Source of the DNA: an uncultured Actinomycetota bacterium
Lineage (GTDB): Bacteria; Actinomycetota; Actinomycetes; Mycobacteriales; Nakamurellaceae
DNA: 64,000 nucleotides
Reading direction: 5' to 3'
NCBI GenBank assembly: GCA_963798965.1
Contig: CAWCVW010000008.1
Location: 890,430-954,429, forward strand
Of the stretch, positions 5,377 through 64,000 are shown one piece after another. Below the pieces are notes generated by a model. The model worked only from the letters and a program-made list of their open reading frames with translations, was not told where the DNA came from and did not search any database. The position numbers and the translations under genes were made by a program. Position 1 is the first letter of the stretch. Each line of letters opens with the position of its first letter.

Positions 5377-7347
5377 GTGCCCGTCAACGTCCGACCACGC
5401 CCAGCACAGCACCCGGCAGCGTCCGGTGGCCGGAGGACACGCGTGCGGGCCGGCTCTTGGCTCGGCGCGGTGATCGCGACCTTCATCGCGAGCGCCCTGC
5501 TCGTCGGGACGGCGGTGCCCGCCGCGGCAGTACCGCCTCCGCCGGACAACCCGTCGGACCAGCAGATCCAGGACAGCCAGGATCAGGCGGCCGCATCGGC
5601 GACCGAGGTCGGACGGCTTGCCGGCCTGGTCAGCAAGACCGAGGGCGACATCGAGCGCCTGAAGAACGACATGGAACTCAAGGCCGAGCTCGCCAACAAG
5701 GCGGCCGTGGACCTGCAGGTGGCGCAGTCCGACGCCGCCTCCGCAAAGTCGGCGGCCACCAAGGCACAGGCCGACGCCGACGCGGCCGCGCAGGCGGTGA
5801 CGGCGGCACAGCAGAAGGCTGCCGCATTTGCCGCTGCGTCGTTCCGGCAGGGCTCCGTGCTGGGATCAGTGAGTGCGTTCGTCGGCACGACCAGCGCCGG
5901 TGACCTCCTGCAGCGCCAGGAGCTCCTCGGGCAGATGTCCGAGTCGCAGCTCAACGTCATCGGCAACCTCGAGGCAACCCGGACCCACCAGGCGAACCTG
6001 GATTCAGCCGCTCGGGCGGCCCTGGACGCGGCGAAGGCAGCGCAGGCGAAGGCAGACGCTGCCAAGGTGGCCGCCGACGCCGCCCAGCAACAGGCACAGG
6101 ATTCGTTGCAGGCGGGTCAGCAGCAGCTTGCCGCTCTACAGACACAACGCGATCAGCAGCAGGCAGCCTACGGCGCGGCCCTCCAGACGGTCGCCGGTCT
6201 GCAGAACCAGCGTCAGCAGTACAACCAGTGGCTCGCCGAGAAGAAGGCAGAGGAAGAGGCCGCGCGCAAGGCGGCCGCGGAGGCAACCCGACTGGCCGCC
6301 GAGCAGGCGGCCAGGGAGGCGGCCGCCGAAGCTGCGCGGCAGGCGGCTGCTGCCCAGGCCGCGGCTCGGCAGGCTGCGGCCGACCAGGCGGCCAGAGCGG
6401 CGGCGGCGGCCCGCCAGGCGGCAGAAGCCGAAGCGGCGGCCGAACGGGCCTCTGCGGAGCGGGAAGCACGCAATCAAGCCGCACGAGCGGCGCAGGAGGC
6501 ACAGGCCGCTCAGGCGAACGCGCCCTACTACTCCAGCTGTGACGCTGCGCGGGCCGACGGGCGCGGACCGATCTCCCGCGGGGAACCCGGGTACCGCTCT
6601 GCGCTGGACCCGAACAACAACGGCATCGCGTGCGAGGGGACGGCCGCGGCAGCGGCCCCTGCTCCCGCGGCGCCGGCACCGGCACCGGCACCGGCACCGG
6701 CACCGGCACCGTCGAATGACGGGACCTACTATTCCAACTGCGATGACGCGCGCGCGGCGGGCGCCGCCCCGATCTCTCGCGGTGAACCGGGCTACCGCTC
6801 TGCACTGGATCCCAACGGCAACGGCATCGCCTGCGAAGGAACGGCCGCAGTCGCGGTCGTCGACTCGCAGCCGTCGCCGAGCTACGACCCCGGTCCCAGT
6901 GCCGGCTCCGGTTCCGGAATGGGCCAGACCGTGGTCAACGCCGCCATGGCCTACCTGGGGACGACCTACGCCTGGGGCGGCGGTGACTCCTCGGGTCCGA
7001 GCCTCGGCATCCGCGACGGCGGCGTGGCCGACAGCTATGGCGACTTCATGAAGGTCGGGTTCGACTGTTCGGGCCTGGCCCTGTACTCCTGGGCGCAGGT
7101 GGGCGTCTACCTGCCGCACTACTCGGGCTACCAGTACTCGGGTCAACCCAAGGTGTCGCAGGGCGATCTCCAGCCGGGCGACCTGGTCTTCTATGCCTAC
7201 AACACCTCCGACCCGGGCACCATCCACCACGTGGCGATCTACATCGGCAACGACCAGATGATCGAGGCGCCGAATTCGGGTTCCTACGTGCGGATCTCGC
7301 CGATGCGATGGGACGGCTTCATCGGGGCGTCCCGACCCGGCGGGTGA
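5377..7347 (+). CDS. ripA: RipA-like NlpC/P60 peptidoglycan endopeptidase with coiled coil and two Excalibur domains
   Basis: Signal peptide, Ala/Gln coiled coil, YAWGGG...GFDCSG...HHVAIY..IEA catalytic motifs. Position between acn and moxR as in mycobacteria. GGAGGAG RBS. Confidence 0.9.
   Translation: MPVNVRPRPAQHPAASGGRRTRVRAGSWLGAVIATFIASALLVGTAVPAAAVPPPPDNPSDQQIQDSQDQAAASATEVGRLAGLVSKTEGDIERLKNDMELKAELANKAAVDLQVAQSDAASAKSAATKAQADADAAAQAVTAAQQKAAAFAAASFRQGSVLGSVSAFVGTTSAGDLLQRQELLGQMSESQLNVIGNLEATRTHQANLDSAARAALDAAKAAQAKADAAKVAADAAQQQAQDSLQAGQQQLAALQTQRDQQQAAYGAALQTVAGLQNQRQQYNQWLAEKKAEEEAARKAAAEATRLAAEQAAREAAAEAARQAAAAQAAARQAAADQAARAAAAARQAAEAEAAAERASAEREARNQAARAAQEAQAAQANAPYYSSCDAARADGRGPISRGEPGYRSALDPNNNGIACEGTAAAAAPAPAAPAPAPAPAPAPAPSNDGTYYSNCDDARAAGAAPISRGEPGYRSALDPNGNGIACEGTAAVAVVDSQPSPSYDPGPSAGSGSGMGQTVVNAAMAYLGTTYAWGGGDSSGPSLGIRDGGVADSYGDFMKVGFDCSGLALYSWAQVGVYLPHYSGYQYSGQPKVSQGDLQPGDLVFYAYNTSDPGTIHHVAIYIGNDQMIEAPNSGSYVRISPMRWDGFIGASRPGG
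6673..6711 (+). repeat. (CCGGCA)n hexamer repeat encoding a Pro-Ala linker
   Basis: About 6.5 perfect copies between the two Excalibur domains. Confidence 0.9.
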
Positions 7348-8045
7348 CCGACGACCCGATCGAGCCCATGCTCGACCGAGTGACGGATGCACCGACCGAC
7401 GAGTCGGCACTCGGCCAGCAGCAGATCCGGACCGAAGACACTGCTGCGGCTGGCGGGACCGGGTCACGCGGCGTCCCGTCGGCAGCGGTCATCCTCGCCG
7501 GTGGTCGCGGCAGCCGGCTGGGCGGCCGGGACAAGCCGGGTCTGCTGGTGGCCGGCAGGACGCTGCTGCAGGTCGCAGTGGACGCGGTCGGGAAGGGACC
7601 GATCGTCGTCGTCGGGCCGCCTCGCGCACTGCCGTCCGGCGTCAGGTCCGTCCAGGAGAACCCGCCCGGCGCGGGACCGGCAGCTGCCGTCGCGACCGGT
7701 CTGGCCGCTCTGCCCGAGCTCGATCAGGACGCCCTCGTCGGGGTCCTGGCGGCGGACCTGCCGGGCGTCAGCACCGACACGATCTCGCGACTGTGTGCGG
7801 CTGTCGTCCCCGCGGCCCACGGTGCCCTGCTCGTCGACCCGGCCGGCCGGCGGCAGTACCTGACCGGCGTGTGGCGGCTGTCGTCCCTGGCCGCCGCGGT
7901 CGATGCCCGCCCGGACTGGTCGGGTCGGTCCCTTCGCGAACTGCTGGCACCTCTGGTTGCCCTGGAGGTCGCTGGAACCGAGACGGAGACAGCCGATGTC
8001 GACACGGAGGACGACTGGGCACGCTGGCGCTCGGCGCCCGGGTGA
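7344..8045 (+). CDS. MobA-like NTP transferase (molybdenum cofactor guanylyltransferase family)
   Basis: ILAGGRGSRLGGRDK motif, LAADLP, DVDTEDD. GTGA overlap with the ripA stop; start could be 7368. Confidence 0.85.
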   Translation: MTDDPIEPMLDRVTDAPTDESALGQQQIRTEDTAAAGGTGSRGVPSAAVILAGGRGSRLGGRDKPGLLVAGRTLLQVAVDAVGKGPIVVVGPPRALPSGVRSVQENPPGAGPAAAVATGLAALPELDQDALVGVLAADLPGVSTDTISRLCAAVVPAAHGALLVDPAGRRQYLTGVWRLSSLAAAVDARPDWSGRSLRELLAPLVALEVAGTETETADVDTEDDWARWRSAPG

Positions 8046-58104: not shown

Positions 58105-59850
58105 TCACCGGGTGAAGACGCTCACCACCAACGGCGTGTCCGCGGCGACCGGTCTGCCTGCGGGAATCGACTGCGTCGCCACCCGGCCGGACCGCCCGCG
58201 GGGTGCGGGCGCCCGGACGGCGTCCTGCGACCGACCTGAGAGACCGGGCATCACCATCAGCGCGTTGTTCGAGACCGTGACGGCGACCGTCGAACCGGGA
58301 CGGACCTGGGATTGCGCGGACGCATTCTGAGCGATGATCTTGCCCTTGTCGGCATCCGAAGAGGCCTTGAGCTGCTGGGCGTACAAGAGCTTCACCGCAG
58401 CCAGCCGTGCGCGCGCCTGGCTTGTTGTCGAACCTACGAGGTCCGGCACGACGACAACCGTGACCCCGCGCCCGATCTCGATGGAGACAACGGTGTTGCG
58501 GTCGACCTGTGTCAGCGAGGACGGCCGCTGGTCCACCACCTTGCCTTTCGAGGGGTCGCTCGACTCGACCCGGCTGGCGACGCCGAGGGTGAGCCCACGT
58601 TCGCGAAGGATTTCGGCTGCCTGCTGGGGGTGCGCCCCGACAGGTCAGGAACGGCCACCAGTGGAGGCGGCGGGGCGGCGGTCAGCACAGCGCCGGTGAC
58701 CTGCGCAGCACCGAAGAGGGCACATGCACAGGCTGCGGCGAGCACCCACCGCCCCCAGCGGGTCGGGCGCGGAAGATCGGTGGAATCTGACTCCGGTGAA
58801 TCCGCCACGCCGGCCACCAGGTCCGGTGGCTGCAGCAGGAGTGGTTGCAGCAGCGGTGGTGCCGGGACGGTTGCCGCCGCCAGTCGCCTTGGACGTCCGA
58901 GTCCGCGGTTGCTCCAGGACGTCGGTACCGCCGGCTCCATCCGTGTTCGTGCTCCCGCCGACCGCGGGCAACGATCTGCCGGCTCATCGCGGCTCGCACG
59001 GCGATGCGCATCTCGGTGGCGGTCTGATAGCGATCCAAGGGTGTGATCCGGGTGGCCTTCCGCACGATGTCGACGAGCTCGGCAGGGACCTGCGCAGCTC
59101 CTGACAACCCTGCAGTGATTGCGGAGAGGTGTTGTGTGGCCAGCGCCGCGGGGGAGTCGGCATCGAACAGCGGTCGCCCGGTGAGCATCTGCCAGAGCAG
59201 GCAGCCGCAGCCGTACACGTCGGATCGGCCATCCAGCGGTGCGCCGATCAGTTGTTCGGGCGAGGCGCACTGTAGGGCCGGGATCTGCGGCGGTCCACCG
59301 GCACCCGCACCGAAGTCCATCACTTTGGGTACACCGCTGCCGTCCAGCATGACGGTCGCGGCGGAGAGTCCGCGGTGCACCACCCCGTGTCGGTGCGCAA
59401 ACTCCAGAGCCTCCAGAATTCCCACCGTGACCTCCAGGGCTCGCGGTGCCGGATGCCTGCCCTCGTGGGCGAGGACTGCTTGCAATGTGTCCCCGTCGAC
59501 GTACTCCAGGACGATGTACGGGACGGGTCGTGCGTCGTCGGCGCCGTCCCCCGCGTCCTGGTTGCGGTCGTGCCGGGTTCGGTCGTGCGGGGTGTGGTCG
59601 TGGTCGATCCGGCTCTGCTGGACGCGGGTGTCATTCCCGGCGTCGTATTCGCCGGTGTCATAGATGCCCACGATGCCCGGATGGTCCAGGGCACAGGCGT
59701 TGTCGGCCTCACGGCGGAATCGCGTCACCGCTGTTCGGTCGGCCGACATCGTGGTTCGCAGAACCTTGATGGCGACCTTGCGGCACAGCCGCGAGTGGCC
59801 GGCTCCGTCGGTTCCCGTTGGTAGGGACCGTGTAGCGGCCACTGTCCGCC
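58105..59850 (-). pseudogene. Frameshifted PknB-like Ser/Thr kinase-TM-PASTA gene
   Basis: VAIKVL, RFRREA, HPGIVGIYDTG, YIVLEYVDG, DFG, SPEQ, DGRSDVY in one frame; TM and VPDLSG in a second; PASTA repeats in a third. Catalytic loop reads HRGLSAATV. Confidence 0.8.
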
Positions 59851-59878
59851 GGGAGCTCGCGCGACGCAACAGCAGTTG

Positions 59879-60793: not shown

Positions 60794-61588
60794 TCAGGAG
60801 GTGGGCGAGCCATCCGGTGATCCGCCCAACCGGATCACCGATTGCGGCCACAGGCCACCGCCGATCGCGTCCCGCATCCTCATCCGCTCCTCGACGCCGG
60901 ACAGCGGTGACGGCAGGACGTCGGTGTGCACATCGGCAGCCACCGCGGTCAGCAGCACCCGCTCGAGTGCCTGCCCGGCCTGTAGACGAGCTGTCGGGAG
61001 GTCCCGGAGCGAGCCGACCACCGCCGTGATGCCCGAGCGCAGATCCGGCAACGTAGGGGAGCGGTGCGCGCCCCACAGCGCAATGACCTGCTCCTCGCTC
61101 AACGTCGCCAACCAAGCCTGCTCGATCTTCGCGGACTGCCGGAGGCGGGTCATCGTTGCCGCCGGCACTCCGCTTCGGGTGACAGCATGTTGCAACTGGT
61201 CCCGCACCAGCGGGATGGCTTCCAGCAGAGCCAGATCCTCCGGGGCAGGCACACCCTGGCCCTGGGGTTGGACGACCGCGATCAGGTCAGGCTGCTCGCT
61301 GTCGGGCAGGAGATGGACCGTCGCATGCACCCCGAGGGCGCGTACCGCCACCCGCAGATCGAGGATCACCCGGCCGCATTGGATCAGTAGTTCCCTGCCT
61401 TCCGCGCCCGCCGCCGGGCGGGCGCCAGTCGTGTGCCCGGCCGCCGCGGGGGATCGCAGTTCGAAACCCCGGCTACTGCATTCCACGGTCCATTCGACAT
61501 CGTGCTGATGGAGATGGACGACCGAGTCGAGGACGAAGCGGACCTCGTCACTTGCAAGGCTGCCGACCGAAGCCTCGATGGAGTACAC
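60794..61588 (-). CDS. Degenerate Acg-family nitroreductase-like protein
   Basis: RELLIQCGRVILDLRVAVRALG, PDLIA, LQAGQALERVLLTA, WPQSVIRLG. Confidence 0.7.
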   Translation of the reverse strand: MYSIEASVGSLASDEVRFVLDSVVHLHQHDVEWTVECSSRGFELRSPAAAGHTTGARPAAGAEGRELLIQCGRVILDLRVAVRALGVHATVHLLPDSEQPDLIAVVQPQGQGVPAPEDLALLEAIPLVRDQLQHAVTRSGVPAATMTRLRQSAKIEQAWLATLSEEQVIALWGAHRSPTLPDLRSGITAVVGSLRDLPTARLQAGQALERVLLTAVAADVHTDVLPSPLSGVEERMRMRDAIGGGLWPQSVIRLGGSPDGSPTS

Positions 61589-61690
61589 CGGAACACCCTC
61601 CGTTCGCGTGACCGGACTTACGTGCGGCCCCCCGCCTGTCGCCCGGTCCTACTCGGCCTCACTGTCCACCTCAGGCGCATTCGGTCAGTA

Positions 61691-61724
61691 GGGCCGAATG
61701 ACCCGGCATGGCGCTGAAAGTGCC
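61691..61724. promoter_or_regulatory. DosR/DevR-like box GGGCCGAATGACCC plus a weak second site 20 bp downstream
   Basis: Between divergent acg-like and dosS-like genes; near-identical to 43211-43224. Confidence 0.6.
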
Positions 61725-61772
61725 CGATGTTCGGTGCGGCGCAGGTCGCGGCCGGTGTGCCACAGTGAGCCA

Positions 61773-63332
61773 GTGAGCGACGGAGCCGCTGTGGTGAGCC
61801 GGGTGGATGCCTTGCTCGACGCTGTGATGGCCGTGTCGTCCGGGCTCGACCTGGATGTCACCCTGCGCAGCATCGTGGACGCGGCTATGCAGTTGGTCGA
61901 CGCGCGGTACGGCGCATTGGGGGTGGTCGATGACGACGGCGCGCTGACCCGGTTCGTGGTCGCCGGCATCGACGAGGAAACCAAGAACTTGATCGGCGCG
62001 ACCCCCACCGGGCAAGGCCTGCTGGGCACCGTCATCCGTAACGGCCATCCCATCCGTCTCGACGACCTCAGCACGCACCGGGCGGCTGTGGGGATGCCGC
62101 CACACCACCCACCGATGAAGACCTTTCTCGGTGTCCCGGTACGCGGCCGGCGGGCCATCGTCGGGCGGCTCTATCTGACCGACAAGAACAACGGCCGGTC
62201 GTTCACCGCCGAGGACGAGGCGTTGGTGATGTCACTGGCGGCGGCCGCGGGTGTGGCCATCGACAACTCGACCTTGTACGAAGACGCGCGAGGGCGGCAA
62301 CGCTGGCTGGAGGCGACGGCCGACGTGACGGCCGTGCTCCTCGCAGGCAGCGAGACCAGTGACGCTCTGCACCTCATCGCGAGCCGGGCCCACGACATGA
62401 CCGGAGCCGATCTGACGCTGATCCTGCTACCGGCGGCGAGGGCGGTGCCGGACGACCATGCCGACGGCATCGATCCCGAAGAGCTTCAGATCGTCGTGGC
62501 CGTCGGGGAGGCCGCAGATGCTTTCTCCGGTCGGCGCGTCCCGGTGCGCGGGACGACATCCGGTGCGGTGTACGGAGATCACGTCCCACGCAACGTCCAC
62601 CATCTCGCGGGGAGGTTGGAGGAGGCGACCGGGGTGAGACTGGGGCCTGCCCTCGTGCTGCCCCTCGGCTCCGACGACGGACCGGGCGGGGTGCTGCTCG
62701 CCGTCCGCAGGGACGGCGCGGCGCCGTTCAACGACACCGAGCTGCAGGTGGTGTCCTCCTTCGCCGATCAGGCGGCGCTGGCACTACAGCGCGCAGATGT
62801 GCAGACGTCCCGGCGTGAGCTCCAGGCGCTGACCGAGCGGGACCGCATCGCCACCGATCTGCACGACCACGTCATCCAGCGTCTGTTCGCGGTGGCAATG
62901 GCGATGGAGGGCACGCAGCGTCGGGTCGATGCACCGCAGATCGCGGCCCGGCTGGCCGACCACGTCGACCAGTTGCACCGGACGATCCTGCAGATTCGCA
63001 GTGCGATCTTCGACCTGCGCCACGAACCCGCGCCGGTTCCGCCGCTGCGCACAACACTTGCGGAGCTCGTTCTCTCGATCACCGCGGGCCACCAGGCGAC
63101 GGTCACGGTCACCATGGCCGGACCGGTCGATGCCGTACCGGCGGACGTCGCTGCGCAGGCGGAGGCGGCGCTGCGCACGGGCCTGTCCGACGCGATCGGC
63201 GAACCGGGTCTGACTTCCCTCACCGTCACCATCGCCGCCGCCGACACCCTCGATGTGAGCATCTCGACCGAGTCCGGCGGGCGCGTGCGCGCGGATGGGG
63301 TACGGCTGCGGTGGTCGAGCCCGCTGCCGTGA
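61773..63332 (+). CDS. DosS/DevS-like double-GAF sensor with intact HisKA_3 and degenerate ATPase domain
   Basis: ARYGALGV, GMPPHHPPMKTFLGVPV, GRLYLTDK, DLHDHVIQRLFA; N and G boxes eroded or deleted. Confidence 0.85.
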   Translation: MSDGAAVVSRVDALLDAVMAVSSGLDLDVTLRSIVDAAMQLVDARYGALGVVDDDGALTRFVVAGIDEETKNLIGATPTGQGLLGTVIRNGHPIRLDDLSTHRAAVGMPPHHPPMKTFLGVPVRGRRAIVGRLYLTDKNNGRSFTAEDEALVMSLAAAAGVAIDNSTLYEDARGRQRWLEATADVTAVLLAGSETSDALHLIASRAHDMTGADLTLILLPAARAVPDDHADGIDPEELQIVVAVGEAADAFSGRRVPVRGTTSGAVYGDHVPRNVHHLAGRLEEATGVRLGPALVLPLGSDDGPGGVLLAVRRDGAAPFNDTELQVVSSFADQAALALQRADVQTSRRELQALTERDRIATDLHDHVIQRLFAVAMAMEGTQRRVDAPQIAARLADHVDQLHRTILQIRSAIFDLRHEPAPVPPLRTTLAELVLSITAGHQATVTVTMAGPVDAVPADVAAQAEAALRTGLSDAIGEPGLTSLTVTIAAADTLDVSISTESGGRVRADGVRLRWSSPLP

Positions 63333-63366
63333 GGAGTGGGTCTTCTGGGGCGATACGGTCACGGAC

Positions 63367-64000
63367 GTGTTCGTCCTGTTACCACCCTCGGAAACCAAGG
63401 CCACCGGTGGCAACGGCCCACCGCTCGATCTGGAGCAGTTGCGATTTCCGGAGTTGACCGGACCGCGGACGATGGTCATCGAGTCGCTGACAGCGCTGTG
63501 CATCGACGTCGAGCGAGCCCGGCGGGCACTGTCGGTGGGTCCGGGAAAAGACGCTGAGATCGCCGCGACCGCAGGACTGCGGGCGGGGCCGACGCTGCCT
63601 GCGCTGCAGCGTTACACCGGTGTGCTCTACGAGGCGTTGGATGTCGCTCATCTGCCCAGCTCGGCGCTGGCACGGGCAGCGGACCGGCTGCTCGTCACGT
63701 CTGCACTGTTCGGCGTCATCGGCGCCGCCGACCGGGTGCCCGCATACCGGTATTCGGCGGGTTCCACCATCCCTGGGTTTCCCCGGCCCGCCGCCTTCTG
63801 GCGTCCGTACCTGACCGGCCATCTGACTGCGCTGGAGAGGCCGGTACTCGACCTGCGATCCGGCGCCTACACGGGTTTCGCGCGGCTCCCCGGCGCCGTC
63901 ACCGTGCGGGTGCTGTCCGAGGACTCAGCAGGTCGACGAAGCATCGTCAGCCACACCAACAAGGCCGCGAAGGGCCGCCTCGCCCGCGCATTGGTGATCA
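63367..64000 (+). CDS. yaaA: Peroxide stress protein YaaA (DUF328), truncated by the window end
   Basis: LLPPSETK, RYTGVLYEALD, SALFG, YRYS, DLRSGAY, SHTNKAAKGRLAR. Confidence 0.88.
   Translation, partial: MFVLLPPSETKATGGNGPPLDLEQLRFPELTGPRTMVIESLTALCIDVERARRALSVGPGKDAEIAATAGLRAGPTLPALQRYTGVLYEALDVAHLPSSALARAADRLLVTSALFGVIGAADRVPAYRYSAGSTIPGFPRPAAFWRPYLTGHLTALERPVLDLRSGAYTGFARLPGAVTVRVLSEDSAGRRSIVSHTNKAAKGRLARALVI

Follow-up and report, generated by a model that had tools for sequence, protein, structure and literature searches.

The 64,000-nt window analysed here, part of contig CAWCVW010000008.1 from a metagenome-assembled genome (MAG) of the Nakamurellaceae, carries near its 3' end a gene for a DosS/DosT-like heme sensor that appears to have lost the ability to bind ATP. 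The protein follows the order GAF-A (heme), GAF-B and HisKA_3, the last being its DHp domain, and ends in a remnant of about 100 residues of the ATP-binding (CA) domain. It has every sensor and DHp feature that characterizes the DosS/DosT family and lacks the catalytic domain that would make it a histidine kinase. The sequences indicate that the gene is a functional pseudo-histidine-kinase maintained by selection, and not a dying gene.

The longest open reading frame of the sensor gene (61698..63332, + strand, 544 residues by the reading frame list and translation) sets the residue numbering used throughout. GTG at 61773 is the sole start codon kept in 7/7 orthologous loci, while the upstream ATG and GTG candidates are not kept in an alignment of the upstream regions. 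The best-supported gene model is therefore 61773..63332, coding for 519 residues. The comparisons below rely on ten distinct orthologs, comprising 7 species loci and 3 metagenome proteins, with the fragment P0167 as an addition. The orthologous loci come from MAGs labelled Mycobacteriales or uncultured Actinomycetota and from further genomes.

Sensor domains, DHp and the ATP-binding remnant

Pfam finds GAF/GAF_2 twice in the sensor protein and HisKA_3 at residues 380–443. An AlphaFold2 (AF2) model of the whole protein has a mean pLDDT of 83.3, with the C-terminal 100 residues confidently predicted. GAF-A matches the heme-binding GAF-A of DosT in the PDB (2vzw, E 1e-51) and that of DosS (E ~1e-47). 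It is ~60% identical to DosT GAF-A in a structural alignment, and its AF2 model superposes on DosS GAF-A with a TM-score of 0.92 and an rmsd of 1.6–1.7 Å. The domain carries the motif PPHHPPMKTFLGVP, which the original prediction for this gene had recognized as the heme-ligand region of DosS. H137 is the counterpart of the proximal heme His and Y159 that of the distal Tyr, both of which are invariant across 90 homologs. The position of DosS Glu87 is occupied by Gly75, corresponding to Gly85 of DosT, which makes the sensor DosT-like at this site. We predict that GAF-A is a DosS/DosT-type heme domain with a retained pocket. GAF-B matches the GAF-B of M. smegmatis DevS (2vjw, E 5e-17).

The H-box DLHDHVIQRLF is intact, as originally noted, and contains H389, D390 and Q394. 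The last two belong to the DxxxQ motif, the phosphatase motif of HisKA_3 kinases (PMC3510030). His389, Asp390 and Gln394 are invariant in all orthologs, and His389 with DxxxQ is likewise invariant in 90 homologs. The DHp is near-identical across the 10 orthologs except for the inter-helix loop.

No Pfam match to HATPase_c was found in the sensor protein, even at E<=0.1. Since all three DosS-like paralogs from the same genome pass the HATPase_c cut-off, Pfam is able to detect this short-lid type of CA domain. Residues 467–526 align weakly to residues 23–82 of the DosS/DosT CA domains (3zxo/3zxq). About 30 residues are then missing, after which the terminal strand RLRWSSPL aligns again to the last strand of the same two structures. 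A strand is predicted at 534–542, and W539 is invariant in 90 homologs. The main elements that the original prediction had described for this region, a degenerate N-box and G1, a missing lid and G2, and a terminal strand that survives in frame, were all recovered.

The ATP contacts of DosS comprise E499, N503, R506 and H507 in the N-box, D529, G531 and G533 in G1, S541 in G2 and T568 in G3 (PMC10312584). Mapped onto the sensor, E499 is replaced by T, N503 by D, R506 by G, H507 by E, D529 by T and T568 by V, and the counterparts of G531, G533 and S541 fall within a deletion. None of the nine contact residues survives in any of the 10 orthologs, each position being either substituted or deleted. 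The replacing residues differ among the orthologs, indicating that these positions are unconstrained. The 12/12 tabulated canonical homologs, which include the three paralogs from the same genome, keep E, N, R and H in the N-box and D, G and G in G1. The G2 Ser and G3 Thr are kept in 11 of the 12, the paralog adjacent to DosR having His and Val instead. The linker stands in for about 40 residues of the canonical domain, measures ~5 to 27 residues among the ten orthologs and has no sequence conservation. In DosS, the D529N mutation by itself abolishes nucleotide (AMP-PNP) binding, and H507F weakens binding 16-fold (PMC10312584). Because the contact residues are lost, we predict that the sensor cannot bind ATP.

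The C-terminal 104 residues were also modelled alone, structure modelling being a check named in the original prediction. From AF2 input alignments that contain canonical CA domains, the model reached a pLDDT of 87.6 and a pTM of 0.75. It consists of a helix, a strand, a long helix that was formerly the N-box helix, two strands, a loop and the last strand, giving two helices and four strands. The best Foldseek match is the CA domain of DosS (3zxo, E 7e-6, TM-score 0.71), and the CA domains of VraS and DesK are also near. The C-terminal region is accordingly modelled as a Bergerat-fold stump that lacks the G1 loop, the lid, the G2 helix and one strand.

Ancestry of the deletion and selection on the gene

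The gene is present in 7/77 species representatives of the uncultured Mycobacteriales genus to which the window belongs. A search of 5.8 billion proteins returned eight more proteins at 68–83% BLAST identity that have no HATPase_c match, and the matches at <=57% identity all carry HATPase_c with the exception of P0012. The degenerate CA architecture is common to the 10 orthologs and absent in every canonical homolog examined. In a maximum-likelihood tree built from GAF-A to DHp only, leaving out the CA region, the orthologs form one clade (100/100). P0012 is the sister of this clade, and the canonical kinases P0011 and P0013 branch next. The loss of the ATP site is old, inherited by the whole clade.

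P0012 has a full-length CA domain in which the E499, N503, H507, G533 and S541 positions are already replaced. No close relatives of this protein were found; it is a singleton whose next match is 62% identical and canonical. If P0012 shows the ancestral state, catalytic death may have preceded the deletion. The closest ortholog of the sensor, L013, carries two in-frame low-complexity expansions, at ~6600–6680 and 7620–7680: a loop of GAF-B contains a Thr/Ala run, and an 8-residue unit of the CA linker is duplicated in tandem. This indicates that both loops are unconstrained.

We screened for independent CA-less DosS-like lineages with a GAF-GAF-DHp query, using the best 150 representatives from 1.84 billion proteins. 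The short matches were mostly contig-end fragments or out-of-frame tails, and P0167 proved to be a further member of the clade. One protein of 519 residues, P0259, is 43% identical over GAF-GAF-DHp and has an intact N-box followed by an apparent deletion from G1 to the last strand. It may represent an independent CA deletion or else a frameshift artefact.

The ratio of nonsynonymous to synonymous rates (dN/dS) was calculated by the Nei-Gojobori method; with a dS of 0.5–1.0 in GC-rich, codon-biased genes, the absolute values are rough and the ranking of the domains is robust. Over 15 pairs of six orthologs, dN/dS is 0.19 for the whole gene, 0.13 for GAF-A, 0.17 for GAF-B, 0.057 for the DHp, 0.43 for the CA stump and 0.52 for the tail. 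Three phylogenetically independent pairs with a codon bootstrap give 0.09 for GAF-A (0.06–0.13), 0.10 for GAF-B (0.07–0.15), 0.04 for the DHp (0.02–0.07), which is the lowest among the domains, and 0.28 for the CA stump (0.20–0.39). Whole-gene values span 0.13–0.22 across comparisons.

All-pairs dN/dS of the canonical paralog group was rejected as a control because dS was saturated, and a comparison within the same genome pair was used instead. Between genomes G000 and G023, dN/dS is 0.131 for the sensor gene and 0.113 for a kinase-competent paralog. In this pair, the DHp of the sensor changes at half the rate of its counterpart (dN 0.034 vs 0.070), whereas the stump evolves ~1.6 times faster than the paralog CA domain (0.215 vs 0.133). 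Among five genes of the locus, the sensor gene has the lowest dN/dS in 4/5 comparisons, the Acg-like neighbour being slightly lower in the comparison with L013. The sensor domains, the signalling helix and above all the DHp, with His389, Asp390 and Gln394, are under strong purifying selection. A deletion unique to one strain and under relaxed selection, which the original prediction had named as its own refutation, is clearly not what we observe, as the deletion is shared by orthologs from at least seven species and dN/dS is low.

Candidate activities of the sensor

Three canonical DosS-like kinases are encoded elsewhere in the genome, with 55, 40 and 39% identity to the sensor. The 39% paralog adjoins a DosR ortholog (E 2e-70 to 3c3w). 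Three other genomes with an ortholog of the sensor share this regulator and the kinase beside it at 94–97% identity. The genome also encodes a second DosR-like regulator (48% identity) and several NarL-type regulators. In G007, a member of the genus without the degenerate sensor gene, a canonical kinase of the closest-paralog type lies directly downstream of a second DosR-like regulator that is 56% identical to DosR (G007:C1:2211067-2214301). This arrangement suggests that the partner of the closest-paralog kinases may be a DosR paralog in place of DosR.

We propose, as a reading with about an even chance of being right, that heme gates the protein and that it works on a DosR-type regulator only as a phosphatase or only by transfer; the former is the leading candidate, and the stump would act as a clamp on the DHp. 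A soluble heme sensor of the DosS/DosT type would still drive the HisKA_3 four-helix bundle. Without autophosphorylation, it would act on phosphoryl groups from other kinases, the canonical DosS-like kinases and the DosR ortholog being a possible phosphoryl source and substrate. The most likely activity would be gas- or redox-gated dephosphorylation of a phosphorylated DosR-type response regulator through DxxxQ, and phosphatase is favoured because this motif is invariant. Reverse or forward transfer through His389 would be the nearest alternative. A phosphatase-only sensor would set the threshold of a dormancy-type response. The retained stump probably packs on the DHp and holds or switches its conformation. 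The CA domains of DesK-type kinases lie packed against the DHp when these enzymes are in the phosphatase state. DevS/DosS itself is described as a bifunctional kinase/phosphatase in vivo in work cited in PMC12757749 (Kaur 2016, Sharma 2019). A tentative and rather improbable extension is that the sensor couples O2, NO, CO or the redox state to the phosphorylation level of a regulator charged by other kinases, serving as an ATP-independent, heme-gated switch that works as a phosphatase or as a bidirectional His-phosphotransferase. The clade would then record how a gas-sensing histidine kinase was naturally converted into such a switch.

Several points weigh against the phosphatase reading and its DosR target. 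Since the whole DHp is invariant, the conserved His and DxxxQ alone cannot separate phosphatase activity, phosphotransfer and partner binding in these alignments. The DHp of the sensor is 63.5% identical to that of the orphan 55% paralog and 47% to that of the DosR-adjacent kinase (the remaining paralogs lie at 40–47%), and given these identities DosR may not be the partner of the sensor. No DosR-box-like palindrome (GGGAC-N4-GTCCC, 1 mismatch) occurs near the sensor gene, and the window as a whole holds 3 such sites against 8.4 expected. The canonical CA domains in the AF2 input bias the stump toward a Bergerat-like model, and the roughness of the absolute dN/dS values counts on the same side. 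PhyT, the best-studied degenerate histidine kinase with a sensor domain, was first called a phosphatase, but later work identified it as a phosphotransferase that also regulates by sequestration (PMC5898713). The gas-sensing pseudokinase of the original prediction stands with regard to its heme sensor, phospho-His and in-frame degenerate ATP domain, while the proposed roles as phosphatase, phosphate sink or dominant-negative partner and the DosR target are not decisively discriminated.

It is possible, although rather improbable, that the sensor is a His-phosphotransferase or phosphate sink similar to PhyT, ChpT or Spo0B. His389 would then take a phosphoryl group from a phosphorylated regulator or receiver domain and relay or drain it under control of the heme. 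The invariance of His389 agrees with this. ChpT shares the DHp His and a degenerate Bergerat domain, and its C-terminal domain is closest to the CA domain of DesK, a HisKA_3-type kinase (PMC3433190); PhyT, which has the same architecture as the sensor, keeps a sensor domain and relays phosphate (PMC5898713). The several NarL-type regulators and the second DosR-like regulator of the genome would offer partners. However, none of the 7 loci has a linked single-domain receiver or second regulator, and the second DosR-like regulator was not found at E<=1e-45 in one ortholog-bearing genome that is 99% complete. DxxxQ, which is dispensable for pure phosphotransfer, nevertheless stays invariant.

A role as modulator of a partner kinase is unlikely. 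In this case the sensor would form a heterodimer or complex with a canonical DosS-like kinase, either as a hemi-kinase that the CA domain of the partner phosphorylates in trans, joining the input of two sensors, or as a dominant-negative inhibitor resembling RetS or RocA. Three canonical paralogs are available, the closest of them with the high DHp identity given above, and the extreme conservation of the DHp is compatible with a protein-protein interface. Precedents exist in RetS-GacS (reviewed in PMC12757749) and in the pseudokinase RocA with CovS (PMC7028121). Neither G017 (99% complete) nor G010, both of which carry an ortholog of the sensor, yielded a paralog of the 55% type, which weakens a heterodimer with that paralog, and the other paralogs share just 40–47% DHp identity. 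Paralogous kinases also tend to evolve away from heterodimers, and the His of RocA is dispensable whereas that of the sensor is invariant.

Less probable still is a phosphorylation-independent heme sensor in which the DHp only dimerises or docks, sequestering a regulator or controlling the products of the neighbouring genes, namely an Acg-like protein, a universal stress protein (USP) and a Ser/Thr protein kinase-like (STPK-like) protein. The conserved synteny with the genes of these proteins, the last of which lacks its catalytic Asp, would fit such a role, as would the negative role of PhyT, which consists in sequestration of the unphosphorylated regulator (PMC5898713). The same synteny, however, surrounds a kinase-competent sister gene and so does not explain the loss of the CA domain. 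Moreover, nothing would hold His, Asp and Gln in place, but all three stay invariant over a dS of ~0.9.

Residual autokinase activity through a non-canonical nucleotide site is very improbable. The His is retained, and DosS was itself once considered unable to bind ATP owing to its short lid (PMC10312584), but the nine contact residues of the sensor are lost and vary among orthologs, and the protein physically lacks the adenine-binding Asp, lid, G2 helix and one strand.

An incipient pseudogene or assembly artefact is hardly credible and is refuted by the present data. In its favour, the CA stump evolves at 3–7 times the rate of the remaining domains, indels and a tandem duplication occur in the linker, and the adjacent STPK-like gene is frame-shifted in this window. 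Against it, 7 independent genome assemblies and 3 or 4 metagenome proteins all show an uninterrupted sensor frame, dN/dS is 0.13–0.22 over the whole gene and 0.28 in the stump, with an upper bootstrap bound of 0.39, and the sensor gene is the most constrained of the five locus genes in all but one comparison.

The locus and comparison with known systems

The coordinates of the sensor and its surroundings are collected in Table 1. The order of the locus is kept in the orthologs: the STPK-like, USP and Acg-like genes, all on the - strand, are followed by the divergent sensor gene and then by yaaA. The first three genes are found in unchanged order around P0011, the canonical sister gene, on a contig that ends before any yaaA, which places the origin of the neighbourhood before the CA loss.

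Table 1 Features of the sensor gene and its locus. Residues are numbered in the 544-residue frame.
Feature	Position	Strand	Basis
Predicted kinase-dead DosS/DosT-like sensor gene	61773..63332	+	Reading frame list, translation, conserved GTG
GAF-A, putative heme-binding domain, residues 36-198	61803..62291	+	Pfam GAF_2 1.3e-28; PDB 2vzw; AF2 superposition
Proximal His137	62106-62108	+	Alignment with DosS/DosT GAF-A
Distal Tyr159	62172-62174	+	Alignment with DosS/DosT GAF-A
GAF-B and signalling helix into DHp	62292..62807	+	Pfam GAF/GAF_3, second stretch; 2vjw match
DHp (HisKA_3)	62808..63032	+	Pfam HisKA_3 8.5e-10
Phospho-acceptor His389	62862-62864	+	H-box alignment
DxxxQ phosphatase motif, Asp390 to Gln394	62865-62867 to 62877-62879	+	H389-D390-H-V-I-Q394
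CA (Bergerat) stump: helix, strand, former N-box helix, two strands	63033..63269	+	Weak DosS/DosT CA match; AF2; residue table
Degenerate N-box, T494/D498/G501/E502 replacing E/N/R/H	63177-63203	+	Residue table
Short unconserved linker replacing G1 glycines, lid, G2 helix and one strand	63270..63299	+	Alignments
Retained last beta-strand V-R-L-R-W-S-S-P-L-P, G3 Thr replaced by Val	63300..63329	+	3zxo/3zxq terminal-strand alignment
Conserved leader of the sensor gene	61660..61769	+	Intergenic alignment, 7 loci
Acg-family (nitroreductase-like) gene, 264 residues, divergent	60794..61588	-	NCBIfam Acg family 94.9 bits, below cut-off 199
yaaA (peroxide stress protein, PF03883), runs past window end	63295-63999	+	Pfam
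STPK-like gene	58682-59869, remnants to ~58114	-	Orthologs L008, L011, L013; sister L030 482-2605 (-)

As the original prediction stated, no response regulator is adjacent. A whole-genome GerE scan found none in the window, the nearest GerE-type gene lying ~26 kb downstream of the sensor, and receiver genes are likewise absent from the window and from the 6-kb flanks examined around the orthologous loci. A location without a regulator is not unusual in itself, since DosT of M. tuberculosis is also an orphan and the canonical sister P0011 lies in the same regulator-less synteny.

In 5/5 orthologous loci tested, and likewise beside the canonical sister, the Acg-like gene adjoins the sensor. Its product has 264 residues compared with 338 in the sister locus; there is an internal gap of ~27 residues, and the C-terminus is shorter. 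Although the protein has no sequence match in the PDB, purifying selection acts on the gene (dN/dS 0.12–0.25). On the other side, yaaA starts within ~30 nt of the sensor stop codon or overlaps it, and this arrangement is kept in four orthologous loci. The conserved spacing makes it probable that the sensor and yaaA are co-transcribed, which would join a heme sensor to a peroxide/iron-stress gene.

The STPK-like protein keeps the VAIK Lys and the DFG motif, while the catalytic Asp of the HRD loop is missing in every copy (HRG in this window, HRH, HGS and HRA in the orthologs, HRN in the sister locus). By these motifs, the neighbour is a conserved Ser/Thr pseudokinase. The gene seems broken in this window only, where the kinase domain and the transmembrane/PASTA part lie in different frames, the Gly-rich loop is absent and the PASTA region is shortened relative to the ~700-residue orthologs. 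With the sensor beside it, the locus could be a signalling node of two dead kinases.

The leader of the sensor gene contains CACTGT (61660-61665), a AGGGCCGAA-like block (near 61689-61703) and CACAGTGAGC (61760-61769). CACTGT and CACAGTGAGC form inverted repeats, 101–127 nt apart, that bracket the leader, the second arm ending 3 nt before the GTG. The repeat is invariant in 7/7 loci, wobble-equivalent positions included, and could be an operator pair or a stem that sequesters the start codon. A structured leader or riboswitch was considered and rejected, as Rfam returned only a spurious miRNA match for the leader (E 0.2) and RNAalifold on the 7 leaders gave a weak consensus (-15 kcal/mol) with a positive, unfavourable covariation term. 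A promoter/terminator scan yielded nothing useful.

DosS, DosT and DosR are a model for hypoxia/NO sensing and dormancy in mycobacteria, and the gating by heme and the separation of kinase from phosphatase outputs in these sensors are still debated. A family member that has dropped the kinase half and kept the sensor, signalling helix and DHp, apparently under tighter constraint than its kinase-competent paralog, would provide a clean phosphatase- or transfer-only scaffold for heme-to-DHp signalling. It would also exemplify how two-component networks gain negative or buffering nodes through duplication and partial domain death. Caution is needed with automatic annotation, in which proteins of this kind receive the label 'GAF domain-containing protein' or 'sensor histidine kinase'. 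Any direct effect on physiology is likely narrow in reach, as the gene belongs to a small clade of uncultured soil and freshwater Mycobacteriales.

The sensor resembles DosT (Rv2027c) and DosS (DevS, Rv3132c) of M. tuberculosis in the GAF-A(heme)-GAF-B-HisKA_3 order, the H-box and DxxxQ. It is close to DosT in particular in the identity of its GAF-A, the proximal His, the distal Tyr and the Gly at the position of DosS Glu87. Like dosT, its gene is an orphan beside USP and Acg-type genes in a genome with a DosR ortholog. Unlike both proteins, it has a CA region without the nine ATP-contact residues, the G1 loop, the lid, the G2 helix and one strand, in which HATPase_c goes undetected.

Among degenerate kinases, PhyT (formerly PhyP) of Sphingomonas melonis likewise combines a sensor domain, a DHp with a phosphorylatable His and a degenerate ATPase domain, and it controls a response regulator although it produces no phosphate of its own (PMC5898713). 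PhyT, however, is a membrane protein of the HWE/HisKA2 type with PhyR as its target, whereas the protein described here is, by its sequence, soluble, a putative heme-GAF sensor and of the HisKA_3 type with DxxxQ. ChpT of Caulobacter and Spo0B of Bacillus also have an active-His four-helix DHp bundle and an atypical Bergerat domain that binds no ATP, as is predicted for the sensor, but they lack a sensor domain and have a full-size pseudo-CA domain with a filled pocket (PMC3433190). The window protein keeps two GAF sensor domains, and its CA domain is shortened by deletion. DivL (PMC4211667), RocA (PMC7028121) and RetS (PMC12757749) are histidine kinase homologs that have lost kinase activity of their own or do not depend on it, and they act through protein contacts with other two-component proteins. 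In DivL a Tyr replaces the His, RocA does not need its His, and RetS is a hybrid kinase with receiver domains. In contrast to DivL and RocA, the sensor has its His and phosphatase motif strictly conserved in all orthologs.

Full-text literature searches for a DosS/DosT pseudokinase or for GAF-HisKA_3 proteins without HATPase_c found no description. While degenerate histidine kinases are already known from Spo0B, ChpT, PhyT, DivL, RocA and RetS, the sequences point to a new combination here: a member of the DosS/DosT heme family with two cytoplasmic GAF domains that keeps the HisKA_3 His and DxxxQ, and whose CA domain has been shortened by a deletion and not merely mutated.

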